Assembly: GCA_000004695.1 (NCBI GenBank)
Contig: CM000150.2
Span: 3,072,001 to 3,136,000, forward strand
DNA length: 64,000 nt
Direction of reading: 5' to 3'
Source: Dictyostelium discoideum
Taxonomy: Eukaryota
Shown here: positions 6,895 to 56,034 of the stretch, piece after piece
Layout: the number at the start of each line of letters is the position of its first letter
How positions within the stretch are numbered: the stretch's first letter is position 1
The notes under the pieces: model-generated
Told to the model about the DNA's origin: nothing
What the model saw: the letters and a program-made list of their open reading frames with translations, nothing else
Databases searched by the model: none
Made by a program: the position numbers and the translations under genes

Positions 6895-9800
6895 TTAATT
6901 CTTATTTTGATATTTATAGTTATTTAAAGTTAAAGAAAATAAAACTACTGGTAGTGAAGATAATAATTCAGATAAACCGGCCAAAGCAGGTGGAATTGTA
7001 AACCATGGATATAAAATACCACTTGAAAGAGGAATACCTAAAAGATTATAGATGAATGCCCAAAATAAATTAAATTTAATAGTTTTGAAAATTGATTTTG
7101 ATAAATCAAAACAAACCAAAATATCATTTAAATCATTTTTTAGTAATATAACACTTGATGATTCAATTGCAATATCTGTACCATTTGAAATTGAAATACC
7201 AATATCTGATTGAACCAAAGCTAATGAATCATTTACACCATCACCAACCATTACAACAATTGATTTATTTTTACCATTATTACTATTATTATCACTGCCA
7301 CTACAACCAACACTGGCACCATTAAAACCATCACCACCATCAGTACCACAACAATTATCTTCAGTTGTATTATAACCTTGTAATTTTCTAACGATATTGA
7401 ATTTATCAATTGGTAATGCTGAACCAATAATATTACCCGAATTAATATTTAATTGTTCACCAATTGATTGAGTTGCTCTTTTATTATCACCACTAACTAA
7501 CCAAACATCAATACCATTATTTTTTAATTTTGAAATTACTTTTTTTGCTTCTGGTTTCAATTTATCAGATAATGAAACTAATCCAATAATTTTCTCATTC
7601 ATTGATACTAAAATTACTGTTTTCCCTTGATTCTCTAATTTATCAATATCATTTTGAATCACTGAATTAATTATAACTTCCTTTGATTGACTTTTTGATA
7701 GTTGTGATGATGACGAAGAGCAACAACCTTTCTTACAATCACTACCATTGCTAATAGAAGTTGGTGGTGGTGCTGGACAACAACCTTTCTTACAATCACT
7801 GCTATTGCTAATAGAAGTTGGTGGTGGTGGTGGTAATGATGGACAACAACCTTTCTTACAATCACTACCATTGCCAGTAGAAATTGGTGGTGCTGCTGCT
7901 GCTGGACAACAACCTTTCTTACATTCACTGCCATTGCTAATAGAAGTTGGTGGTGGTGGTGGTGGTGGTAATGATAGACAACAACCTTTCTTACAATCAT
8001 CAGATTTTGAATTAATTAATTGACTTGATTGTAATGGTGATTGACAAGAATCAATTTTATTATTATTATTTGATAATTGTTCAACAATAAAAGATTGATT
8101 ACCAACCATAATTTTATTATTATTAATAAAAGAAATAATACCTTTTCCAGGATGAACTTCACTATTTGTTGGTTCTTGTAGTGCTTTTTCTAAAGTGAAT
8201 TGTTGAATTGCATATTGTTTAATTGATTTACCAATTAAATGTTCACTTGATAATTCAGCGGATGCAGTATAGAAAAAGAATTGTTTTGGTGAAATTGATT
8301 GATCATATATTGAGAAATGATTTATATCGATTTCACCAGTTGTTAAAGTACCAGTTTTATCAAATATGACCTTGTTGACTTTACTTGCCAATTCAATTAC
8401 TTGACCACCACCTTTGAATAGAATACCAAATTTCTTTGCACCAATTGCACTACCAACCATAATTGATGTTGGCGTTGCTAATGAGATCGCACAAGGACAT
8501 GAAATTACCATTAATGACATACTAATTTTAATTGCAAAAGTGAATGCTGATTGATTATCAGTGGCAATGACAACATTATAGTGAATTAAACAAAACCAAA
8601 CTATAAATGTAATTATTGAGCATATTAATATGGTTGGTACGAAATAAGATGCAACTAAATCTGCATAGTTTTGAAAGTTTGGTTTAATTGATTGACTCTC
8701 TTCAACCAATTTAATAATATTTGATAATGCTGTATCATTTGAATGTTTTGTAACTTTAATAATTAAACAACCCTTTTGATTCATTGTTCCACCAAAAACG
8801 TAATCATCAATTCTCTTATAGACATGATTTGCTTCACCAGTTATAATTGATTCATCAATATATCCACCATTACCTCTAATTATAATACCATCAGTTGGAA
8901 TCTTTGTAAATGGTAATACTTTTAAAATATCACCTTTTTCAATTAACTCTTTTTCAATCATTATTTCTTGTTCACTACCTACATCTTTATTATTATTATT
9001 TGATAATAGAATTGCATTTGATGAATCTAATTGTTTCATTTTTTCGACTAATACATTTGATGCTTTTGATTTTGCTAAGTGTTCTAAATATCTACCAAGA
9101 ATAATTAATGTTAAAAGTATAACACAAGTTTCAAAGAAAATTGGACCATTATAATTCAATGAGGAGAAATGATTTAAAATTAAATTAATTAGAGAATAAA
9201 AGTAAGCAATCGTACTACTTGTCATAACTAATAAATCCATACTACATTTTCTTGCATAAATCAAAGTTTTCCAAGCTGAAATATACAATGGTTTACCACA
9301 ATAAAATTGAATTGGTGTTGCAAATGATAATAATAATAAAATTGACATTGTAATACCTTTACCAATTTCAAATTCCATAACTTCTTTAACTGATTTAATA
9401 TTTGGAAAAATATATGAAATTAAAATTGTTGGTATAAATAATAAAATACAAAACATTAATAATGATTTTAAGTTATTATTATTATTATCTTTTGAATTAT
9501 TATTCTTATTATTGGAATTATTATTATTATTTAATTTTGTATTTGGTTGAATTTTAAAATTATCACCAAATATAAGTTGGATTTCTTTTAATAGATTACG
9601 TGGTCCAATTTTATCAGTATCATAAACAATTGTAAGTTTATCATTAACCGAACCAGATTCTTCGATAGCATCTAAAACACCATCAATTGATAATTTAATA
9701 TTTTCAATTAATTGATCATTTAATATTGTTGTTAATGTTGAAGTTGGTGATAATGATATGATTTCAATTGTAATTTGATTTGAATTTGATGATTGACCAT

Positions 9801-36622: not shown

Positions 36623-36653
<31 letters not shown>

Positions 36654-38200: not shown

Positions 38201-39553
<1,353 letters not shown>

Positions 39554-39623: not shown

Positions 39624-39694
<71 letters not shown>

Positions 39695-40631: not shown

Positions 40632-41076
40632 ATGGAGAAGCAAATAAAGAATGAAAAATTATTTTGGTCAGTTTATAAAAATAAATTTTTAAATGGAATA
40701 ATTTTTAAAAGATCAGAATTTAAATTTTCAGCATATACATACAATGAAATGAATAGTGTTGAGTGGATGATAAAAAATAAACATTTTTCATTATTAAAAG
40801 AAAAGATTATTAGAAATGATAGAAATTTAAATTTTTTTTTAAAGTGTCCATCCCGAATGAAACCAATTAAATGTCAACAAGAAATTTTCAAACATTACAA
40901 AAACGATACAGAATTATTTTCAAATTTATTCAAATATTATAAAGATGACAAATATCTATCACAATTAAATTTAAAAGATTTAGAAAATCATTCAATTGAT
41001 TATGATAATGTAGCATTATTTAAAGTTTTAATAAATGAATTAGGATATTGCTTAGATAATGATAATAATAATAATA

Positions 41077-41158
<82 letters not shown>

Positions 41159-42887
41159 TGATGATAATGATGACGATGATGTTGGTAATACTATGAAAAT
41201 ATTTTACAAATCTATTTATTCTGGGTCATTTGAAATTGCAACTTTTTATATAATTATAATAATAATAATAATAATTATTTTAAAAATCAAAATAAAATAT
41301 GGATTGATACCAATTGGATATAAAAAGTGATCCGAAATTATAATGAAAAAGGTTGATTTCTATTATTCAATAATTTCAAAAGCAATTCCAAAATTTTCAA
41401 AAAGTGATGATAGAGGCGTTGTAATTAAGGATTTGTCAAATCCAGTATTATTTTCAATATCAATTCATTCTTGTCAATTATCATTCATTATAAAATGTTG
41501 TAAAACAATATCATTATTATTATTGATAAATGAACAATCAGAACAATTCAAATATTCAAAAAATGATATCATTGAAATTGAACAATTAAAACAATATGAA
41601 ATTCCAGATTTAATATTTACAAAAGATGAATTAAATTTTAAAATTCAATCATTTGCTTTTAAAAATACAATAGTTCAAAGATTATATAAAATGGTATTAT
41701 TATTTTCAGATTCTTCAAGTCATTCAAATATTGCATTTTATCAAATTAAATACTATGGAGAAATTAATAATAAAATTTATACACATATTTTTAAACCTCA
41801 AAGTTTTGGTTATTATATTAGTGGATTTAAAGATTACAAAACTAATTTATTAAATGAATATTTATTTGAATATTGTAGATATGATAGAAATGAAAGAATC
41901 ATACCATTCTTTAAAGATGCAATCAAAGAAATATTAAATCCATCAATTGATAAATCATTAAAACCAACTAAAAATTTATTAATTAATTATGCAATAATTT
42001 TAAATGATTTGGAAATTTTAGAAATGGTTTATAATAAATTATTCAATATTAAAGGTGATGGTGATGGTGATGATGATCATGGCAATGATAATAATATCAT
42101 TTTATTAGATGAAGTTTATTATAGAAAGGATGTTAAAATATTTGATTTCTATATTAATAAATTATCAGAACAACATAGATTACAAATATTGGATAGAATT
42201 GGTGAGAATTATACATTATCTACTCATTTTAAAAATAATTATCCAATTTATTATAAAAATGCATTACCTCATTATAACCATCCATATCAAGACCAATTGT
42301 ATGTATCAAGATTTTTAACTGAAAATTATAAAGATGTACCAATAAATAACAAACATTTTAAAAACAAATTTGACATTACAAAAAAGTTTCCATTCATAAT
42401 TCACAGAAGTTTATTCATTGATTTTAAATTACCACCATCTAAATTAACATATTTAAATGAAAATGGAACTGAAATTGAATATGAAATTCCACCATACACA
42501 TTACACCAAAATGGTTTTTTATCGGGTATAGCTCATCAATTAAATTGGATTTTAAAATATAGAAATAAAGATATTGAAGATGGGACATTAATAATTACAT
42601 ATGATTTTATATTATTAACTCAATATTTTAGAAATAATATTGAAGAAACCATTTTAAATGATATCAATTCATATTTTAATCAAAAACATGTTAGTCCAAA
42701 AATTTTAAATTTTCTATTAGAAGAAATCGCCAAAAGAGGTGATATTGAAACAATTGAATTCTTAATTAACCAATTTAAAAATAATCAACAATTTTTAAAT
42801 CATATAATTAATCATTCAAAATCAATTTCATTAACAACACCAATTAACCAAATTGATTTTTATAATTATTTAAGTAATAAAAATTAA
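40632..42887 (+). pseudogene. Disrupted copy (in-frame TGA plus internal deletion/degeneration) of a paralogous gene family whose intact copy is 44884..47058
   Basis: ORFs 40632..41330 and 41343..42887 are in the same frame, separated by a single TGA. The N-terminus MEKQIKNEKLFWSVYKNKFLNGIIFKRSEFKF... and the C-terminal two-thirds are collinear with the intact copy. About 22 aa (QPNIKSKYNKEFIFTNSEEVYN) are missing, and the preceding segment is replaced by poly-Ile/low-complexity sequence. The intervening 25 nt is too short for an intron. This could alternatively be a sequencing error or a read-through gene. Confidence 0.45.
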
Positions 42888-43229
42888 TTTTTATTTTTTT
42901 TTTCAATTCAATTTATTTTTTCATTCACCAAACAAAATAAATTTTAAACTATTTATTATTATAATATTATTATAATATTATTTATTTATTTATTTTTAAT
43001 AATAACTAAAAAAATAAATAAAAAAAATTGATTTTTTTTTTTTTTATTTTTAGGTCGTGGTACCACAGTGGGTTCTAAGTGTTGTAAATAAATGGTCAAC
43101 CACAGTTTTTTTTTTTTTTTTCGAAAATAGAAAAATGTTGAACAACATAAATTATAATTTTTTATTTATTTTTTAAAAATTAATTTTTTTTTTCTTTTAA
43201 ACCTTTTTTTGACCGTTTTATTACTCTTT

Positions 43230-44310
43230 CCGATCCAATATTTGAATTGTTTAAAGATGACAATGAATTTTAATACAATTTATTTAAAAATTATAAAGAT
43301 AATCAATATATTTCCAATTTGACATTATCAGATTTAGAAAAATTTTCACAAAAAAATGATAATGTTGCATTATTACAAATATTATTAGAAAAATCAAAAG
43401 ACTATATCAATTTAAAAATTTTTTATAAATTCGTATGTAGTGGTGCAATAAATTCATCAACCTATTTATACAATAATTATTTTAAAGACTATTTCATTAA
43501 TAATCAACCTCAATCAACAAATAAATTATGGTATGAGGCAATTGGGTATAGTCAAATTTAAATCCAAAACTTCACTATGGGAAAAGAAATTTTTGTATTA
43601 AGAAAATTATAATAAAAAAGTTGAATTTTATTTAAATATCATTTCAAAATAAATTCCACCATTTTCAAAACATTTAAATATTAATCCTAAAATTAAATTA
43701 CAAATGACTCATTTGGGTAACCCAATCATATTTGATTTATCAATTCTTAAATTAAATTTAATTCAATTAATTATTAACTGTAAGACAATGTCATTATTAT
43801 TATCATCACCAACTGAACAACCAGAATTCAATTATTCAAAGAATGATATTATTGAAATGGAAGAATTAAAGCAATTGGAAAATCAATTCACAAATAGTGA
43901 ATAAATAGTAAAGTATCATCATTTAGTTATAAAAATGAAAAAGTTAAAATATTATTTAAAATGATGTTACCATTCTGTGGTAATATGCAATATGATCATA
44001 CAAGAATGGGTGAAATACCAGAAAGTAATTCAGTTTTGTTTTATCAAATGAAATATTATGGTGAAATTAATGATGTTTCAAAAAAAGAAAATTTAACTAG
44101 TAGTTTTGGATATTATGATAGATATTTTAAAAAGATATTTTTATTTTCAAAATTATTATACATGTCCTTTAAAATATTGTTTGAATGAAAGAAGAGTTAT
44201 ACCATTCTTTAAAGATGCAATTAAAGATATAATAGATATATCAATAGAAAGCAATTTAAAAATTGAGAGAAAAACTTTAATTCTTTGGATGATATTAAAA
44301 TAAACCAAAT
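43230..44310 (+). pseudogene. Frameshifted, N-terminally truncated fragment of the same gene family
   Basis: Three short ORFs in different frames match consecutive parts of the intact copy: LSDLEKFSQKNDNVALLQ...LWYEAIGY; GNPIIFDLSI...CKTMSLLLSSPTEQPEFNYSKNDIIEMEELKQ; FYQMKYYGEIN...ERRVIPFFKDAIKDI. There are stops and frameshifts between them, and no region equivalent to the first 70 aa. Confidence 0.6.
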
Positions 44311-44883
44311 AAAAAAAAGTGTTTTAGAATAATTAATAATAATAAAAGAAATAATAATAATATTGATTTAAATTTTCAACAAAATCTTTATGATTTTCAA
44401 GCATGAATTTATTTGTTGTATAATCTGGTATATATTTACACTTTTTATTTGTATCAAAATGGAATTTGTAATGTAAAATTGACTTTTTATAATCAATTGG
44501 ATAACTATTCTTGAAGTTGGATCCAACTCATCATTGTAACAATTTTCATGTAAAATAAGTTCATCACCAACATCTTTTTTGTTACGTTTATTACTATTGT
44601 ATAATTGATTATAAACCATTTGTAAAATTTCAAAATCATTTATAAAGATTGCAAAATCAATTAAGTTAAAATAATTAGTGTGTATTATTTTTAACTTTTT
44701 CTTTTTCTTGGTTTTTTTTTTTTTTTTTTTAGTTTTATTTTCAAAGCCTATGCTAAAACAATAAAATAAATAAATTTAGAGAAAAATCACTGAATTTTTT
44801 TTTTTTTTTTTTTTTAATTTTTTTTATTATAATTTTTTTAATAATTTTTTTTTTTTATAACCATTATTATTTTAAAAATTAAA

Positions 44884-47058
44884 ATGGAAAAACAAAATGA
44901 AAATTTATTTTGGTCAGTTTTTAGAAATAAATTTTTAAATAGATTAATTTTTAAAAGTTCAGAATTTAAATTTGGAGTTTATACATACTATGAAATGAAT
45001 AATGTTGGTTGGATGATAAATCATAAACATTTTTCATTACTAAAAGAAAAGATTATCAGAAATGATAGAAATCTAAATTTTTTTAATCACAACAATGATT
45101 TGTGTAGTAAATATCCAATATTTAAATATTTCAAACAAGACACAGAATTATTTTCAAAATTACTCGAAAATTTCAAAGATGAAAAATCACTTTCCCAATT
45201 GACTTTTTCAAATTTTGAACTTTTAGCACTCAAAAATGATAATGTAGCCATGTTATCAGTTATAATTAACCAATTCAAACATTATTCGGAATTAGAAACA
45301 TTCTATAAAGTTATTAATATTGGATCTATAGAAATTGCAACTTATTTATTTAATAATTATTTTCAAGATATTCTATTAAAAGAACAACCAGAATCAATCA
45401 ATACATTATGGAATGAAGCAATTGGATATCAACCAAATATAAAATCAAAATATAATAAAGAGTTTATTTTTACAAATAGTGAAGAAGTTTATAATAAAAA
45501 AGTTGAATTTTATATAACAAATATTTCAAAGGTGATACCACCATTTTCATTGAATTCATATACCAACTCACCTACTCCAATAGAAATCAATCAGTATGGG
45601 AATCCAACACTATTTGGTATATCAATTTATGAACTTAGTTTAAAAAGAATAATTAAATGTTGTAAAACAATATCATTTTTATTATCAGCAAATGAACAAC
45701 CAGAATTTCAATATTCAAAAAATGATATCATTGAAATGGAACAATTAAAACAATATGAAATTCCAGATTTAATATTTACAAATAGTGAACTAAATTCAAA
45801 AATGCAATCATTTAGTTTTAAAAATACAATAGTTCAAAGATTGTATGAAATGGTATTATTATTTTCAGATTCTCCAGGTCTCTATAAACCATCAATTGCA
45901 AATATTGCATTTTATCAAATGAAATACCATGAAGTGTTCAATAATAAAGATTATAACAGAATATTCAACCCTCAAAGTTTTGGTTATTTTATTGGTGTAT
46001 GTAGTAATACACCTGGTCTATTTTTATTAAATAATATATTTGAATATTGTAGAAATGATAGAGATGAAAGAATTATTCCCTACTTTAAAGATGTAATTAA
46101 AGAAATAGTAGGTTCACCAATAGATAAATCATTAAAACCAACTAATAATTTATTGACAATTAAAAGTATATTAATAAGATATGCAATCATTTTAAATGAT
46201 ATAGAAATCATTAAAATGTTATACGACAAGTTATCAATTAGTTCATTAGATTGTATTACTTTAGTTAGAGGTATAGGTTCTGGAATTGAAAATATTAATT
46301 TTGATGTTAAAATATTCGATTTCTTTTTTTATAAATTAACAGAGAGAGAGAGATTAAATATAATCAATATCATTATCCAAAATTATCAACTAATAAACTA
46401 TTTCAAGAATAATTATCCAATCGATTATAAAAAGTCTGTTTTAAATTACAAATTCCCATCAAAAAATAATAATTATTTACCAAGATTTTTGTGTGAGAAT
46501 TATAAAGATTTTGTAAATAAAGAGAATGAAATTAAATCAAGATTTCAAGATTTTATTTTTAGAAGGGTATTTTTTGGTTACAAATTACCAATCGTTTTTA
46601 CTTTCCCAAATAATGAAGGTATTGAAGTTGAACTTAAAATCTGTCCATATAGACTTTATAACTATAAGATGGTGTCATCAGTTGCCCCTCAATTAAATTG
46701 GATCCTACAATATAGAAGTCAAGATATTAAAGATGGAACATTACAAATCACATATGATAAAATATTAATAACTCAATATCTTAGAAATAATATTGAAGAA
46801 ACCATTTTAAATGATAATAATAATTCATATTATCAACAAGAAAGTGTGACTCCTTCAATATTAAACCATTTATTAGAAGAAATCGCCAAAAGAGGTGATA
46901 TTAAAACAATTGAATTCTTAATTGATCAATTTAAAAATAATAAACCATTTTTAGATCATACAATAAATCATTCAAAATCTTTTTCATTGACAAACAACCA
47001 AATTGAAATTTATAATTATTTGGATAACAAAAATTTATTAAATAAATTCATTTATTAA
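44884..47058 (+). CDS. Intact member (724 aa) of a hypothetical protein family present in three copies in this window
   Basis: Single long ORF MEKQNENLFWSVFRNKFLNRLIFKSSEFKF.... It is collinear with 40632..42887 and the 43230..44310 fragment. No recognisable catalytic motif. The C-terminus has conserved ...LLEEIAKRGDI[EK]TIEFLI[ND]QFKNN. Confidence 0.65.
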   Translation: MEKQNENLFWSVFRNKFLNRLIFKSSEFKFGVYTYYEMNNVGWMINHKHFSLLKEKIIRNDRNLNFFNHNNDLCSKYPIFKYFKQDTELFSKLLENFKDEKSLSQLTFSNFELLALKNDNVAMLSVIINQFKHYSELETFYKVINIGSIEIATYLFNNYFQDILLKEQPESINTLWNEAIGYQPNIKSKYNKEFIFTNSEEVYNKKVEFYITNISKVIPPFSLNSYTNSPTPIEINQYGNPTLFGISIYELSLKRIIKCCKTISFLLSANEQPEFQYSKNDIIEMEQLKQYEIPDLIFTNSELNSKMQSFSFKNTIVQRLYEMVLLFSDSPGLYKPSIANIAFYQMKYHEVFNNKDYNRIFNPQSFGYFIGVCSNTPGLFLLNNIFEYCRNDRDERIIPYFKDVIKEIVGSPIDKSLKPTNNLLTIKSILIRYAIILNDIEIIKMLYDKLSISSLDCITLVRGIGSGIENINFDVKIFDFFFYKLTERERLNIINIIIQNYQLINYFKNNYPIDYKKSVLNYKFPSKNNNYLPRFLCENYKDFVNKENEIKSRFQDFIFRRVFFGYKLPIVFTFPNNEGIEVELKICPYRLYNYKMVSSVAPQLNWILQYRSQDIKDGTLQITYDKILITQYLRNNIEETILNDNNNSYYQQESVTPSILNHLLEEIAKRGDIKTIEFLIDQFKNNKPFLDHTINHSKSFSLTNNQIEIYNYLDNKNLLNKFIY

Positions 47059-47126: not shown

Positions 47127-50124
47127 TTATTTTTTTTCAGATTGTAGAATACCTCTGATATCAGTATTTATCCAACCTCTTTGTTTTACTTGCGAGGCTT
47201 CATTATCTGACCACATGCAAACTCTACCAGTAATATCACCAGTATAGAATTTTTGTTGATCATTTGTTAAAAATATTGAAGTTATAGCTGTTGAATGTGA
47301 TTGAGAGTTTGAAAAAGTTGCTCTAAGAATAATTACATTTTTGAATTTTAATTTGTTGTTATTTGTTGAAGGAATTTGAGTTGCATTATTATTATTATTG
47401 TTATTATTATTATTATTATTATTTGAATTATTATTATCAGGTAATAATCTTGTTTCTAAACCCCAAACTTTAACTTTACCATCTCTGTGACCTGTTAATA
47501 ATACATTTTCACCTAACCACTCAGGACCTTTTGACCAAATACAACAAGTGATTTGATCATTAGCGATTTGTGAAGTTTTATAGTTGATAAGTAATTCACC
47601 ATTGACGGTATAAACAGATATTGTTGTACCAGAGCAAACTACAATTTCACCAGTTGTATCATGAATACCAATACAAGAGATTGGACCTTCATGAGCATCT
47701 AAACTACGGACATAACAAAGTCTATTTAAATCCCAAATGATACAAGTACGATCATCAGAACCACTTACGATGATAGAATAAGGACGAGAGGCGGATACAC
47801 AAGTGATTGAACCAGTATGACCTGATAGTCTCTTGGCCAAGGAGAATCTCTTGAGATTGTAAACACAGATTAAACTATCACTACCACCACTTACACAAAT
47901 ACGACCATCTTCAGTGGCTGTTAAACAAGTTAATGGACCATCGTGATGATCCTCTAAAACTTTGATCTTATCACCAGTGTTGTAACGAATTGAGCCATCA
48001 GGTAAACCCCATAACATATATTTTGAGTGATTTGGTGGTAAGAGTACCTTATTGAAACCGACACAAGTTGCACGATCATTGATTAAACGAATTTGACCAA
48101 CTGGTTCACCGATATCCTTTATGAAATTACCAGTTAACGCTTTTGCGTAGAATGGTAAACCCATTAAGGTGGCATTACGTTTTGGATGTGGTTTATCAAA
48201 GAGTTGTTTTGGAGTTTGACCAAAGTTATTAATTTGAGCAATGGTTGCAGCCTTTTCAACGGGATCAGAGATTGCATCAATATTTACGGCACCTTCATAA
48301 GTTAGATAATAGAAAACATTCAAAGAGTCATCGGCTGCTTTACCTTGTTGACGATAACCAAAGATTAAATCGATCCATTCATGAAGATGTTCAGAGACAT
48401 AATCGGATTCCAATGCTTTACGATGAAGTTTAATGAATTCCTGTGGCGAACCTTTTGCCCATGGTGGTAAGATAATATCATCGATTGGTTCACCGCCTTG
48501 TTTTGTACCGAAATTGAATTTATTATTATTTACCAAAAATTCATCCAAATAATAGAATTCAGGAATTAACTCCATTACCACACCAGTACTTCCTTGTGAT
48601 GATGATGCCCAAGCCTCAGTGATTGAACTAAACAAACGATCAGGTTGATCCCATCTGCCACCTTGAAGTTTAAGGAAATGTTGAGTGAATGGTTCTAAAC
48701 GAATTAAATAATAAAGTACGATAGCGGCTGAACTATAATGTGTACCATAATGGAATTTTGGTACTTTATGGCCATGTTCATTTGGTTCTTGATCATCCCA
48801 ATTCTCGAAACGTTCTCTAAACTTTTGAGCTCTACTCTCTTCTAAGGCACCCATTGGTTTTGAGAGATCACGATAAACCTTTGGATCATCAATATCCAAT
48901 TCTTCACTTTCATAGTCACTCAATACCCAAGGAAAAACTGGATACTGTGTTAAATCATTATAGGAACGACCTGCCAAAGTGTTCAAATGCATTAGATATT
49001 GGAAATTTGAGATTTGGCCTTGTTGCCATTTCAATGTTAATGGTGATTTTCTCCAAATCGAAGTGAAACGATCTCTAACGCCACGACCTCCTCCACCACC
49101 ATGATGATCATCATTGTCGTCATTACCAGTTTGACCACCAGTAATACCTTGTGCATCACCACCAATTGTATTATGAGAGGATACATTATTGACCAAGGTA
49201 TGATAAACTTCATCACGGGTTGGTTCATCACGATAGACTACAAGATTGTTTCTACCATCGGTTGAAAAGATTTCCAATGCAACTTGTCTTAAAAGGTATC
49301 TTCTCTTTAAGACATCACGGATATCTTCATAAGCCCATTTCAAAAAGTAATGAATGATCTTCTTTTTCATTGGTAAAACAGTGCCCTCTGGTAGCCATTC
49401 AGAGTTTATCTTTTCTTCAACTTCACTAATATCACCAGTGTTTTCATCCTTATAATAACCATCGAAAATATACATATAAACTGGACAGAAAATTAAAATA
49501 CCTTCAATCTTATCCATACCATCAACACTACCACAATTGTACATAATACCATTTAAACGTGGATCTTTTCTCATTGCATCCTTTAAATAACTTTGATCAT
49601 ATGGATCTAATAATCTAATGAATGCTTGAGTTTCATCTTCACTTGTTGTTTGATTATTTGTTGATGTTTCTTCATCAACTTCATTTGTATTACCTGTTGT
49701 TGTTGTTGCTACTGATGATTGAGTAGTTGGTGTTGAAGTTGTTGTTGTTGTTGTTGTTTGAGTTGATGGTGGAGGTGGTGATAATGTTGTACTAGCACTA
49801 GTTAAAGAAGAATTTTCTTCAGAAATTGTAGATGAATTATCATTAAACAATTCAGAAGATGATGGATTACGTGATAATTGACCCTCGACTGTTGATGATT
49901 GTAATTTTGGTGATTTAAATACATCTTCACTTGATGATTGTACTGGTGAAGTTGGTGGTGTTATTTCATTTGATGATAGTTCTGGACTACTAACTTTAAT
50001 TTGAGATGATGATTGTTGTGGAGTTGTAGTTGTTGTAGTATTAGATGATGATGATGATGTTGATTGATTCATATTATTAGCATTATTATTATTATTTGCA
50101 TTTTGTGAAGTTGATTTTGTAATT

Positions 50125-50183
<59 letters not shown>

Positions 50184-53100
50184 TGTAATTGAAGAAGTAT
50201 TAGTTGAAGAAGTAATAACTTGATTAGTTGATAATAAATCAAATTTCCAATATGAAGATTCCAATAGATTAGCTTCTTCAGTACCAACGATATTCATATA
50301 AGTTTCAGAATCTGCAGAACATGGAATTGGTAATAAAGAGTTATTTTGTTCATCAAAAGAAGGTGGAACATAAGGATAATTCTTATAGAAATTATAGTTC
50401 TTTTCCATTTTCTTTCTCATACGATATGGACCTTCAGTTGAATCCAATTTCCATTTATCAAGAGGATGAGGTTCAGAAGGACCCCAAACAGCACGTTCTC
50501 TTGTGATTTGAGCTCTCATATTTTCCCATTGAATTGCATTGAATTTTTGTTTATCACTTTCCAATTGTTTAATTTTCTTACGACGATCACTTTCACTACG
50601 AACGAAATATTGAGCTTTCTTGGTGATATGTTTAGATTTCTCTTCTTGATGAGATTGATCCTTACGATCTTGACGTTGTTTCTTTGAGAGTCTTTCAGTT
50701 CTACGTGATTTCAAAGATGGTAATGTATGTTCTGAAGAATGTTTCTTTTCATTATTTTTAAAGGATAAATGTTGTTTCTTTGGATTCTCTTCAAATACTT
50801 GAGTTATGGTTTGAATATTATCATTAATCCAAAGTTTAAATTCATCATTATTGAAAGCACCATTACCCGAAGTATTACGTAATAATTCAAAGCCTGGTTT
50901 CAAATCAATGATTTCACTTTGACGTTGATTTGAACCACTTGAAACTTTTAATTGTAGTACCGTGGCAAGCGACTCAATATATGATGAAGTTTTCAATGAT
51001 AGTAATAGCCTCCAAAGTTTAATTGAATTATCTACATGTTCATGCTGATCGCTAATTACCAACTTGTACAATGGATAACAAAAAGCATTCATAAAATCTG
51101 AATCCAAATTATTCTCTGAAAAGATAATTCTTTGATGATTTATAATATGATTTGCAACAAAAGATAAATCAGTATCAGTGGTATGATTGATTAAATATAG
51201 AATGATACGATTTAAACTCTTGTATAGAGATTGAACTGTTTTTTGAAGACCAACTCTATCGGCCTCCAATTTCTCTAAAATCTTTACAATGAATAAAAAG
51301 ATTCTCTTTGCAATGATGATTTTATTATTCTTTACCAATTGATCCAAGTTTACTCTATCGACCAACATTGAAGATAACTTTATGAGATTGGAATGAACAC
51401 GTTCATTATCAAAGAACTCGGTCTTGGTGATATTGGTTTCAACGACATACATTAAATCAAGTAAAATTCTTGAATGATATAAAATAAACTCTTCATCTGT
51501 TGCTGTTGTTGGTGCACCCTCTAATACCATCTCAATGATACTAATTGCCTTTGAAGTTTTTCTCATTGCTGATAACATAATTTGACAAAGGAATTTAACT
51601 ACTAAATCCAATACTCTATCTTTGATACCATTGGTTTGACCTGTACTATTATAAAGTGGTGGTAAATTAATTTTACCATTTGGGAATAGAATTGAAATTA
51701 ACTCTTCAACCATTGGTTGACTATAACATTCTTGTTGGAAATATTGATTCTCATGAAAGAGATAAATGAAATAAGTTAACATTGTATATTGTAAATTTGA
51801 CGATTCTTCTGGTGTTGCAAATTGTGATATCTTTAATTCTGGTAACATTTCATCATATAAATTAAAATTAATTGGTTGATTATCACCAACACTAACACCA
51901 CCACCACCACCACCACCACCACCACCCAAAGCACCATTCAATTTTGAGTCATCATCCATACCAGTAACTCTGTTATGTAAACTTGAACCATTTGGTGTAT
52001 TTGTAACACTATCATCACCACCAGTACCTAAATTTTTAGATTGGAATGGACTTGATTGAATACTCATTCTATTCTTTTTCTTTAAAGCTGCTTGTTGAGC
52101 ATCAGTTGCACCTGTACTATTTTCATCGATTGCACCTGTTGTAACTGCAAATTCTAAAGTTTTCTCTTCAAATTTATTCCATAAATTACCAAATTTAGTT
52201 ATAGTTGAAGCTAATCCACTAGTTGGTGTATTATTATTATTATTACTATTACTACTATTAACTAATGTTGATGATGAAGATGATGATGATATATTTGATG
52301 AAATTGAAGAAGATGAAACTGATCTTGAAATTGTTTGAAAAGTTGATAATGGTGAATTACTATTGTCATTATTATTAATACTATTATTTATATTTACATT
52401 TGAAATTAATGAAGATAATAATTCATCATTGTCTAAACCTTGATTTGCATTTTGAAGTTCTTGTTGTTTTTGTTCTAAATATTGATAATTATCTTCATAA
52501 GATCTTTTAATTAGGGAAAGTATTAATTGAGCAGCTTCGATACAATATAAACTCTTTTCAAAAGGAGTAAAAATTCTTAAGAGTTCATGGAATACAATGG
52601 TTGTACCACCAGCACCACCAGAACTACTTGATAAATCTAAATCTACCAATAATTTTGGATCGCCACCCAAAAGTAAATGTAATAAACATAGATAGATCTC
52701 TTGATGACCTGATAAAGATGGTAATACCTTTTCCAATAGTTTGAAACCACTCTTTTTGATAAAGGTTGAACAATAGTCGTATTTATATAAAAAGAAGATA
52801 CAAGTCACACGTAAAGCCAATGAAACTGTCAATGGTGGTAAATTTTCATCAATGAAAAAGAAACACCAATACGATGATACTCTTCTAAAGATTGCTGCAG
52901 TCTCTTGAGTTTGACAATTTGAAACAACCTTTAAGAATGTATAAAATACATGATTAACCAATTGAATGGTTGCAGTATTTGATAATTCCATAGTTGCTAA
53001 TTTACTACGATGAATTGATTTTCTTCTAGAGGATGTCGATGAAGTAGAGGATGATGACGATGATGATGATGGGGTTGGTATATCTTTATGAAGATGTGAA

Positions 53101-54603
53101 ATTAAGAAAGCAGATATTTGTCTAATATCATCTTCAATTAAACCACCATAGGATAGTATATTATAAAGTACATTGATTACCGAGGAAGCAACCGATTCAG
53201 GTAATGGCTCTTCATTTGTTGAAGATGAAAGTATATCGAAAATCTCTTGAATTACATTAACCTTTCTAAGACTATCAATATTGAAACGACGTTGAATATT
53301 ATTTACGATTAAACTATTGTAACCATTAATAACATGACGTTGTAATGCGGGTGTTGTTAATCTCCAAATATCCCAATTCATCATAATATACTTACAAGCA
53401 TTCCAATTGGCAACCGTACCCTCTTGTGGTGCTCTAGAGGTGATTGTTGTTGAACAATTACCATTGATACCAATTAAATCAAATAATAACTCTAAAATAT
53501 TACTATTGAAAAGACCAAGTGATGCTTTCTTTTTCAAGACCCAAGCCAAAAGTTCATAACCATTAATTTGTGACATTTCATGAGTATTGGTTGGATGATA
53601 TTGAATTAAACCAACTAATAAACCTAATGAATCGAATAAAGTCTCTTCAGAATTTGCCTTCTCTAATAATAACAAAGAAATTGGCATACCACCAATCTTT
53701 TTAATACTATCTGCAACTTTATTTCTTCTAAATGCTTCAACACTTCCAATTAATACACCTCTTAATTTTGTAGTTAAATCCGCTTGATTTATAATTTCAA
53801 CTCTACCTTCTAAATCTTTCTTTGAGTTTGAACCACCACTATTATTGTTATTATTATTATTATTTTGTAAACCTGTTAAATTTGGACTTGTACCATTTGG
53901 ACTTGAAAAAACATTTAAAGCAACACCATGATTTTGTGAAAGCTCATTAATTATACCATTGAATATTTCATTGTATACAACTTTACTACTATTATTTGTA
54001 CGAATTAATTTATTTGATGCACATAAACCAACGAGGATCTTATTCTCATCGATTTGCATTGAAACCTTTGCTAAATTCAAAGGACCCAATTGATCACCAT
54101 AATCTAAATCTTTGATTGCCATTAAATTTGCTGAATTTACAATTTCATAAGTTTGATAAGGTGAGAAACGACCCTTGAAATTACTTGCATAGTTTGGACC
54201 TAAAAAGTAAATAGTATTGATATGTTTTGCACCCAAAGAATCCTCCAATAAATAAAATGTACCAATTCTCCAAATTGAATCGGTTGGGAATCTATTTTGA
54301 TTTGAAACACCAATATCACAAATTAACATTGAACCAGAAGTGATTTGAGCAGGATATTGTGCTTTCGTAGCTGTATATTTTAAGAAACCATCAACAAACA
54401 ATTTAAAATCTGTACCACCTAATAATCTTCTTGCATGAACTATACCAATATGATACCATTTACCTTCAACAAACTTGTAAGATGGTATTTCAATTACATA
54501 CTTTGAACTATTAATTATATTAACCGTTATAATACCATTTTTTAAATAAATATAAAGTGATGATTTTTTATCATCTGAATAAATATGTACTAAATCAATT
54601 TGA

Positions 54604-54640
<37 letters not shown>

Positions 54641-56034
54641 TATTACTATTATTACTATTATTACTACTATTATTATTATTATTATTATTATTTACAGTTG
54701 GAAATTTATCAATATATAACCAAAACATAATTGTATAACCATTTGTTGGTGGCCAAGCTCTTTCAGTTATTGGTACACGAATATAACCAAATGGTATTTT
54801 TGATAAATTAAATTCGAAATAGGGTGGAGTTGGTGGTGATTTTGCCATTGATGATAAAATTTTTAAGAGTACTTCTGGTGAATGTTCAGGTTGTAATAAT
54901 TTTACAAATTGACGTAACTCTGAACCTGATAAACAATTTGCACCAACAGTTTGAATTAATGACAATAACAATGGTTGTAATGGGTCATTAGCATTTGATA
55001 AATTTGAAGGGAATCTACTCAAGATCCAATCTGGAATTGATAATTTCGATAGGGCCTCTTGATTATATCTACCGTATTCAGCCATTTTATTAATTCTACT
55101 TATGATTTGTAATCTGAAATCTTTATTCTCAATATGTGGTATAATGTCAAGTATCACATTAAAAGACTCGACATTATTAATGATCATTTGATTTGAGATT
55201 TGATCGGATGCATTTAAATTCTCTGTAACCATATCGAATATGAAATCAACAACTGATTTTGAAAACTCTGTACCCAATACACCAGTCATAATCAAACAAG
55301 ACGAAAATGTTTTGTAACCAATTTGTTGCTCGAAATTCTCTCTATTAATGACATTACCACAAAGTGCACTCGTTGTACATCTACAAATCGATTCAATCAA
55401 TTCCAATTTCTCCATATCCCAATTTCTTGAATCTTTTCGGTTTGGAGAGAATGATGACTCTAAACTAATGAAAACACTAATAATCGATACGAATCCACCA
55501 TGTTCTCTAAATGAATCTCTTGCATGCTTTGATATATTAAATAGTTTTCTAGTTGCATTCAATATATCACTCTTCATTGGATAATTCTCTTTGTTTACAC
55601 TTGTCAATACTTTAATTAATCCATCAAACTCTTTTTGTGTTGGTTCTGGGTCATACTTTATTAATTGTTGTAAAATTCTTAATGATTTACCTCTAACACT
55701 TGAATATGGTAAAAATCTTAATAATATATTAAATATTGAACTAAAAGTAATAAAAATAAATATATTAATATCTATCTATAAAATTTAATATGATTGATTA
55801 TTTAAAAAAAAAAAAAACTTACAAACTTCTAATTAATGAAATATTATCAGGATTTTCAGAAATTAAAATGAATAAACTATCTAATAAAATTTGAAATGAT
55901 TCAACTTTAATAATTGAATTTAAGGCTTGATCATTAGAATCGGCTTCTTTTTCACCATTGCCTGTCATACATGGTACAATTGGTCCATTACTACCACTAC
56001 CATTTTCTTCATTATTATTATCGTTATTATTATT

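Follow-up and report, generated by a model that had tools for sequence, protein, structure and literature searches.

Among the described systems closest to the locus analysed here is the tgr locus (PMC12745789), an example of birth-and-death evolution in tandem gene families of Dictyostelium. Both show local duplication, pseudogene fragments, copy-number differences among isolates, gene conversion, and raised dN/dS. The present array, three paralogous copies that we call A, B, and C, is nevertheless far smaller (2 to 4 copies), and it has no copy C dN/dS window above 1, no sign of hypermutation, and no known recognition role.

At the protein level, the closest comparison is with a superfamily that includes DDB_G0284967 (Q54NV7, "Ankyrin repeat protein"), DDB_G0289685 (Q54H63, "Ankyrin repeat-containing protein"), DDB_G0295705, and D. 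purpureum DICPUDRAFT_74905, proteins of similar length (675 to 935 aa). The A/B/C family and the superfamily have in common an N-terminal module (LFWxVFRNKYL...W.I.N...LLK.KI.R), which is followed by helical hairpin repeats. Identity to copy C is only 16 to 29%. To our knowledge, no member of the superfamily has been studied experimentally.

The locus is ordinary birth-and-death, with routine tandem paralogues and lineage-specific pseudogenes. In detail, we consider it very probable that the A/B/C array is old and that C is intact, A carries a recent T6-to-T5 frameshift, B is long dead, and an in-frame TGA seen in copy A comes from reference errors.

Organization of the locus

The window is the whole 64-kb stretch of Dictyostelium discoideum AX4 chromosome 1 that was analysed. 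The genomes with which it was compared came from PMC12745789, which reports de novo assemblies from Nanopore plus Illumina reads, AX2-214 among them. L001 is an independent lab-lineage assembly; from its near-identity to the window and from PMC12745789, we infer that it is AX2-214. L002 carries the intact 725-aa copy B of wild isolate ACTFIW. The features of the locus are as follows.

40632..42887, plus strand: copy A (tblastn), apparently a recent pseudogene, at most a truncated gene of 245 aa, in the AX4/AX2 lab lineage
41056..41168, plus strand: (AAT)n microsatellite, a poly-Asn tract in copy A (Tandem Repeats Finder; three-way DNA alignment)
41244..41248, plus strand: T5 homopolymer, putative disabling lesion of copy A (T6 to T5, -1 frameshift; window and L001 versus four genomes)
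41310..41435, plus strand: probable AX4 reference error cluster (window versus L001 versus ACTFIW)
43216..44282, plus strand: copy B plus-strand remnant (blastn versus L002 7718-8798, 92% identity)
44363..44664, minus strand: copy B inverted remnant (blastn versus L002, tblastn, and HMM)
44884..47058, plus strand: copy C, intact single-exon gene DDB_G0269606, 724 aa (exact XP_646109 match)

The product of copy C matches XP_646109 (DDB_G0269606, Q55DM2) exactly. With this 724-aa product as the query, tblastn found copy A at 40632-42884 (50% identity over 717 residues, E=0) and plus-strand pieces of copy B at 43235-44297 in alternating frames. The similarity of copy B to DDB_G0269606 lies in pieces totalling residues ~78 to 549 (joint E of 1e-55), together with minus-strand pieces. 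These searches bear out the general picture drawn in the first-pass annotation, namely, three same-strand copies in less than 6.5 kb, one of them intact and two decayed. No further family pieces were found in the 64-kb window with a family HMM in all six frames, and a tRNA scan found no tRNA genes in it.

The three copies sit between a UAA-family transporter gene and a gene for a 3,619-aa BEACH protein, which, judged from its length and synteny, is probably lvsA. The same transporter and lvsA flanks were found at five of the six loci (L001, L002, L003, L005, and L006); at L004, lvsA is present, and the fetched DNA stops short of the transporter side.

Probable reference errors in copy A

Copy A had been described as interrupted by a single in-frame TGA at 41328-41330, with a 22-aa deletion and a replaced segment. 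The window and L001 differ at seven positions in copy A, all inside 126 bp, and at all seven L001 is identical to ACTFIW. Four of them are extra bases in the window at 41310, 41322, 41334, and 41346, exactly 12 bp apart and absent from L001 and ACTFIW; the other three are window miscalls at 41382, 41429, and 41435, where both L001 and ACTFIW differ from the window. The remaining differences between the window and L001 over 22 kb all fall in intergenic low-complexity DNA and consist of homopolymer-length changes and three single-base substitutions in or beside homopolymer runs. Judged from these comparisons, the cluster at 41310-41435 probably represents errors in the AX4 reference.

The TGA exists because of the extra base at 41322, and with that base lacking in L001 and ACTFIW, the claim of a genuine nonsense codon falls. 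The extra bases add a net +4, which together with the real -1 described below restores the frame of copy A in the window. What had been read as a replaced segment would be ancestral sequence, translated out of frame between the real T6-to-T5 deletion and the spurious bases; the corrected translation, IDTIGYKSDPNYNEKVDFYY, fits the A orthologues, that of D. citrinum included. Nor does the 22-aa deletion reflect decay, since a short segment at this place characterizes the A clade as a whole, the intact wild-isolate and D. citrinum orthologues among them.

Taken literally, the window gives a copy A that is in frame apart from one genuine nonsense TGA (41328) and a deleted or replaced segment, and the tblastn alignment of A with C does stay in one frame, broken by one stop. 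We regard this as highly improbable. Base 41322 and the three others spaced with it are missing from both comparison genomes, removal of the four restores a peptide conserved as far as D. citrinum, and the regular spacing and the clustering of the three miscalls suggest a technical origin, not mutation; the A clade, moreover, shares the shorter segment. An intron over the TGA was also considered and rejected, as the orthologues are single-exon and the stop vanishes in the independent assembly.

A probable frameshift in copy A

At 41244-41248, the window and L001 read CAACTTTTTATATAA, and L002, L003, L005, and L006 read CAACTTTTTTATATAA. The resulting 1-bp deletion, T6 to T5, is the sole lesion common to both lab assemblies in copy A. 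In L001, copy A comprises codons 1 to 203 and a 42-aa out-of-frame tail, followed by a 549-codon open frame; when one T is restored, it becomes a 750-aa open reading frame with zero stops. Intact orthologues are found in ACTFIW (709 aa), ACTFIR (717 aa), ACTFIY (733 aa), and D. citrinum (702 aa). In a three-way DNA alignment, the microsatellite of copy A exceeds that of ACTFIW by 84 bp (28 codons), with the frame kept.

The difference between T5 and T6 is one of homopolymer length, the feature most error-prone for Nanopore sequencing, and the site lies 62 bp from the poor stretch of the Sanger reference.

On the strength of the assemblies compared, copy A appears to be a pseudogene of recent origin, frameshifted in the AX4/AX2 lab lineage. 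The first-pass annotation had allowed that the TGA might prove to be a sequencing error and copy A full-length; the TGA is indeed an error, but copy A is still not full-length. Both assemblies could be wrong alike at T5, the Sanger reference and the assembly based on Nanopore reads having erred independently, in which case the real lab strain would have an intact, working copy A. In favour of this, the reference demonstrably fails 62 bp downstream, undercalled homopolymers are a typical Nanopore error, and copy A has no other lesion and a dN/dS versus ACTFIW that is not clearly neutral (0.59, from 36 nonsynonymous and 13 synonymous changes). However, T5 was obtained with two different technologies, and Illumina reads were also used for the new assemblies (PMC12745789). 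The same pipeline gave T6 in the four other assemblies, indicating that it can resolve the run here. We therefore consider shared error at T5 unlikely.

Useful expression of copy A despite the frameshift, whether with the lesion spliced out as part of an intron or as an N-terminal protein of 245 aa with the conserved module, is very unlikely. The annotation of the AX2-type assembly has a 799-aa multi-exon gene running from A into B, and the truncated reading frame keeps residues 1 to 203, including the N-terminal module of the superfamily. However, the 799-aa model must be an artefact of gene prediction, since it passes the stop of A and enters the dead B fragment. Every intact orthologue has a single exon (gene length = 3 × aa + 3), and by inspection the GT...AG pairs around the lesion all remove conserved sequence.

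Structure of copy B

Copy B had been recorded as a frameshifted, 5'-truncated fragment at 43230..44310. It is both frameshifted and 5'-truncated, but the damage is greater, and a part of its 3' region that lies inverted, on the minus strand, had been missed; its extent in the window is 43216-44664. The plus-strand remnant corresponds to codons ~70 to 430 of the intact 725-aa copy B of ACTFIW. A 5' deletion of ~530 bp has removed the promoter and the first 69 codons (L002 7186-7718 has no counterpart by blastn). The remnant carries -1 frameshifts at codons 182, 198, and 300, a +1 frameshift at codon 374, and TAA stops at codons 88 and 215, and its substitutions by codon position are 0.057/0.048/0.077.

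The inverted remnant corresponds to codons ~428 to 559, with a ~97-bp internal deletion, and the last ~170 codons are lost. In blastn, window 44363-44515 matched L002 9188-9036 (94.8%) and window 44521-44664 matched L002 8939-8793 (94.6%); window 44278-44362 matched inverted L002 9883-9791 weakly. The minus-strand pieces were also recovered as minus-frame matches by tblastn and by the HMM (E of 8e-15 and 4e-13). A search for inverted repeats at the inversion breakpoints returned AT-rich low-complexity matches only, with no clean mechanism. With its multiple lesions and its promoter and start codon lost, copy B is, as far as its sequence indicates, a pseudogene.

Age of the duplications and selection

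A, B, and C form separate clades, each with 100% bootstrap support, and the A and C clades each include a syntenic orthologue from D. citrinum, with a dS to that species of 0.38 to 0.52. These results run against the earlier view of the locus as a snapshot of duplication and subsequent pseudogenisation. That the copies are recent duplicates, redundant when new and made different by rapid decay, is hardly credible. The tandem arrangement on one strand and the 50% identity would fit such an origin, but the syntenic orthologues with their between-species dS and the fully supported paralogue clades do not, and the dN/dS of intact A and C (about 0.4) argues that they have been maintained by selection.

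The state of the copies differs among isolates. In ACTFIW, A, B, and C are all intact. In ACTFIR, A is intact and B is dead through +1, -10 bp, and -1 changes and a TAA, with zero lesions in common with AX4. ACTFIZ has two copy B genes, and copy B is absent from ACTFIY and D. citrinum. Copy C has an intact orthologue in each of the six genomes. Taken together, the trees and lesions point to old duplications and to loss that is recent and lineage-specific.

The dN/dS was ~0.4 for A and C, 0.71 to 0.73 for B, and 1.11 between the two copy B genes of ACTFIZ. For copy C it ranged from 0.34 to 0.50, compared to 0.05 to 0.11 for lvsA at similar dS. Purifying selection on the intact copies is weak (dN/dS of about 0.4 versus about 0.1 for lvsA). 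No sign of positive selection was found in copy C, in which no 40-codon window had a pN/pS above 0.77, and there was no sign of hypermutation (dS of 0.08 versus 0.066 for lvsA).

A different account would make the A/B/C array, and maybe the wider superfamily with the N-terminal module, conflict-driven, through bacterial prey, endosymbionts, or social conflict; the losses, duplications, and relaxed or diversifying selection would then amount to an adaptive presence/absence polymorphism among interfertile D. discoideum isolates rather than neutral decay. We think this improbable. The figures relevant to such an account are the dN/dS of 0.7 for B and of 1.1 between the young B duplicates.

Copy C and its protein family

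The product of copy C is predicted to be an all-helical repeat protein (AlphaFold model with pLDDT of 83.9 and pTM of 0.77), in which some stretches are ankyrin-like. Foldseek found no significant match of the model in the PDB, and phmmer found nothing for copy C among PDB sequences. A family profile gave weak ankyrin matches only against the PDB, and a DARPin consensus probe was likewise weak (E of 0.0065 at 6% probability). In Pfam, copy C matched no family at E≤1, its isolated N- and C-terminal parts matched none at E≤10, and a search with all three copies returned nothing, leaving the A/B/C clade without a Pfam ankyrin match.

The family had been called unrecognised. This holds for copy C in Pfam, but a profile search links the A/B/C family to about 30 group-4 Dictyostelium proteins (E from 1e-63 to 5e-4). 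UniProt labels two of the superfamily members as ankyrin-repeat proteins, and one member matches Ank_2 at 4.6e-15. Ank models matched 3 of 31 superfamily members at E≤0.1; P0039 is shown above the cut-off and P0019 (21.9 bits) below it. In hhalign, A1 aligned to P0039 with 96% probability over residues 7 to 131; the alignment stops near the start of the Ank_2-scoring stretch of P0039 (98 to 153) and shares only ~20 residues with it. The superfamily is confined to group-4 Dictyostelium and fast-evolving, and the A/B/C family is cytosolic. In the literature library that was searched, the gene IDs of copy C and the superfamily were not mentioned in any paper.

An F-box in the conserved N-terminal module was considered and rejected: hhalign against the Skp2 F-box/LRR gave no N-terminal alignment, and there was no Pfam F-box match.

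We infer that the protein is a protein-protein interaction scaffold, with a conserved N-terminal module followed by more variable ankyrin-like repeats.

History and implications of the locus

In the NC4-derived lab lineage (AX4/AX2), copy C is intact, and copy A was probably disabled recently by a 1-bp deletion in the T6 run, with no other lesion. Copy B appears long dead, having lost its promoter and first 69 codons and gathered four frameshifts and two stops; its 3' part, about 1.1 kb, was inverted and later partly deleted. A local cluster of AX4 reference errors would account for the apparent TGA and replaced segment. The paralogues may be partly redundant or dispensable, which would explain the repeated loss of copies.

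The probable error cluster in the widely used AX4 reference, which mimics a nonsense codon and masks a real frameshift, is relevant to annotating or editing the locus. The orphan AX4 gene DDB_G0269606 is now placed in a fast-evolving superfamily of helical-repeat proteins. Copies A and B are polymorphic, apparently dead in AX4/AX2 and intact in ACTFIW, and may serve as natural knock-outs for functional study.

Composition of the locus and its neighbors

The window has a GC content of 17 to 30% and also contains poly-Asn tracts and a giant BEACH-domain open reading frame (ORF). The gene at 44884-47058 encodes a 724-aa protein identical to XP_646109 (DDB_G0269606; Q55DM2) of D. discoideum AX4, bearing out the intact gene of the first-pass annotation. 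That annotation's broader description of a three-copy family was also largely right, as judged by tblastn with the copy C protein and by a family HMM. In the tblastn search, copy A (40632-42884) aligned in one frame with 50% identity and a single stop, while copy B was split into four plus-strand pieces whose frames alternate (43235-44297) and two minus-strand pieces (44664-44602 and 44515-44363; residues 430 to 549). The HMM, run on six frames of the 64 kb, confirmed the same pieces (E values of 1e-13 to 1e-15) and found no family pieces beyond copies A, B, and C.

40632-42887, plus strand, copy A
43216-44664, copy B remnants
44884-47058, plus strand, copy C, DDB_G0269606

The minus-strand gene just downstream of copy C encodes 3,619 aa in related loci, and from its length and synteny we infer that it encodes the BEACH protein LvsA. 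Upstream of the array lies a UAA-family transporter gene. An (ATA)60 microsatellite (38915-39095) lies between its exon-like ORFs at 38201-38641 and 39098-39553 (minus strand), presumably within an intron.

Probable reference errors and probable disabling lesion of copy A

Genomes for comparison were taken from work published in 2025 (PMC12745789), in which wild group-4 isolates and laboratory strain AX2-214 were assembled de novo from Nanopore and Illumina data. The locus designated L001, a contig of GCA_054883475.1, encodes a C protein identical to that of the window and, given its near-identity to AX4, very probably represents AX2-214. Over 22 kb it is 99.66% identical to the window. Outside copy A, all differences fall in intergenic low-complexity DNA and are homopolymer-length changes plus three single-base substitutions in or next to homopolymer runs. 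A poly-A tract at 39628-39690 (63 nt) is 45 nt shorter in L001, and the remaining differences lie at 36628, 36795, 36992, 38012, 39860, 40383, and 44711.

Within copy A, all differences form one cluster: extra window bases at 41310, 41322, 41334, and 41346, spaced by exactly 12 bp, and substitutions at 41382, 41429, and 41435. L001 and the wild isolate ACTFIW (L002) read alike at 7/7 of these positions, and the corrected translation (IDTIGYKSDPNYNEKVDFYY) agrees with A orthologues out to D. citrinum. We conclude from these alignments that the seven positions are likely errors in the AX4 reference. The in-frame TGA previously taken as the lesion of copy A arises from aGTGAt read out of frame downstream of the spurious A at 41322, a base missing from L001 and ACTFIW. 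The window does read as one frame with a single stop, but that stop is an artefact of the reference.

Both the window and L001 have a run of five T's at 41244-41248 (CAACTTTTTATATAA), where ACTFIW, ACTFIR, ACTFIY, and D. citrinum (4/4) have six, and the shorter run is highly likely to be real. Corrected copy A comprises a 245-aa ORF (203 native residues and an out-of-frame tail) and an open frame of 549 codons with its first ATG 151 codons in. Restoring one T yields a clean 750-aa ORF, and copy A therefore carries exactly one disabling lesion. In the reference, adding the spurious +4 to this real -1 gives +3, which is why the copy had seemed to stay in frame but to contain a "replaced segment." The A clade as a whole has the 22-aa deletion relative to copy C that was previously attributed to decay. 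All other indels relative to ACTFIW are in frame: (AAT)n is longer by 84 bp and by 12 bp, and there are two further insertions (+12 and +15 bp). The dN/dS of repaired copy A against ACTFIW is 0.59, versus 0.38 to 0.46 among intact A copies, which would fit a recent inactivation. In the publicly available annotation of the AX2-type assembly, copy A and the first copy B ORF are joined into a 799-aa multi-exon gene (L001 5753-8678); this fusion is a gene-prediction artefact.

Anatomy of copy B

Copy B was compared with the intact 725-aa B gene of ACTFIW (L002 7512-9689).

Copy B pieces in the window and their counterparts in L002
43216-44282; 7718-8798; same orientation; 92% identity
44278-44362; 9883-9791; inverted; weak match
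44363-44515; 9188-9036; inverted; 94.8% identity
44521-44664; 8939-8793; inverted; 94.6% identity

There is no counterpart in the window of L002 7186-7718 (the promoter and first 69 codons) or 9188-9791 (the last ~170 codons). In the simplest history, an inversion of ~1.1 kb (L002 8793-9883) would have been followed by internal deletions, with a separate 5' deletion. No clean inverted repeat was found at the inversion breakpoints; inverted (AAT)n/(ATT)n tracts lie on either side of intact B. The frameshifts and 5' truncation reported for this copy were both seen, but it extends to 44664 through minus-strand pieces that had been missed. In the plus-strand part, indels shift the frame by -1 at codons 182, 198, and 300 and by +1 at codon 374, and TAA stops occur at codons 88 and 215. 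By codon position, substitutions are near even (0.057/0.048/0.077), and copy B appears to be long dead.

Copies across genomes and age of the array

State of copies A, B, and C in each genome
AX4 and L001 (laboratory lineage): A, frameshift; B, fragmented and partly inverted; C, intact
ACTFIW: A, intact (709 aa); B, intact (725 aa); C, intact (720 aa)
ACTFIR: A, intact; B, dead; C, intact
ACTFIZ (cf. discoideum): A, present; B, two copies; C, intact
ACTFIY: A, intact; B, absent; C, intact
D. citrinum: A, intact; B, absent; C, intact

ACTFIR copy B has lost one base in an A7 run and a further 10 bp, gained a C, and acquired a TAA at codon 122. AX4 has none of these lesions, indicating that B was inactivated independently in each. 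The gene model ACTFIR_004632 (P0010; 661 aa) similarly is an artefact, as it splices round the real frameshifts of this copy. In D. citrinum, a ~55-codon fragment of the family C terminus (L006 12361-12522; 65% identity) between copy C and lvsA is a remnant of an additional copy with no AX4 counterpart.

A neighbor-joining tree resolved clades A, B, and C with 100% bootstrap support each. Because clades A and C each contain a D. citrinum orthologue, the duplications are older than the discoideum/citrinum split (dS of ~0.3 to 0.5), and the earlier reading of a recent duplication is wrong.

Selection and gene conversion

dN/dS by gene
C orthologues: 0.34-0.50 (closest pair, ACTFIW-ACTFIR, 0.21)
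Intact A orthologues: 0.38-0.46
B of ACTFIW versus ACTFIZ: 0.71-0.73
Two B copies of ACTFIZ: 1.11
Adjacent lvsA exon: 0.05-0.11

No 40-codon window of copy C exceeded a pN/pS of 0.77. The AX4-ACTFIW dS of the family (0.083) is comparable to that of lvsA (0.066). The large lvsA exon (47127-55607, minus strand; also in L002 to L006) gave this dS of 0.066 between AX4 and the D. discoideum-labelled ACTFIW and ACTFIR, which seems high within one species and is in keeping with the reported genetic divergence of tropical isolates from AX4 (PMC12745789). In ACTFIZ, B2 and C (L004 7367-9619 and 10001-12184) are 91 to 98% identical over the 3' ~400 nt, against 82 to 88% in other genomes, which points to local gene conversion between these neighboring paralogues.

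Protein family and fold

Copy C alone had no Pfam match at an E value of ≤1 and no PDB sequence match. A family profile searched against 1.84 billion representatives gave 34 matches, most of 675 to 935 aa, and all named matches whose source was looked up are from group-4 Dictyostelium (the D. discoideum clade, D. citrinum, D. firmibasis, and D. purpureum). Superfamily members in AX4 include DDB_G0284967, DDB_G0289685, and DDB_G0295705, the first two labelled ankyrin-repeat proteins in UniProt. The most conserved part common to the superfamily is an N-terminal module (residues ~3 to 65). By hhalign, the family aligned with the distant member P0039 at 96% probability over residues 7 to 131, up to the start of the P0039 stretch that scores as Ank_2 (4.6e-15). 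AlphaFold, with a 31-sequence alignment, gave a confident all-helical hairpin-repeat model (pLDDT, 83.9; pTM, 0.77), for which Foldseek found no significant match in the PDB. A DARPin probe matched the family weakly, and an F-box probe was negative. In our reading, the copy C protein is built of helical repeats that have diverged strongly and include ankyrin-like stretches; it probably serves as a scaffold for protein interactions and is formally no more than a candidate ankyrin family member. This locus is a case of ordinary birth-and-death evolution in an old three-gene tandem array of a lineage-restricted family.
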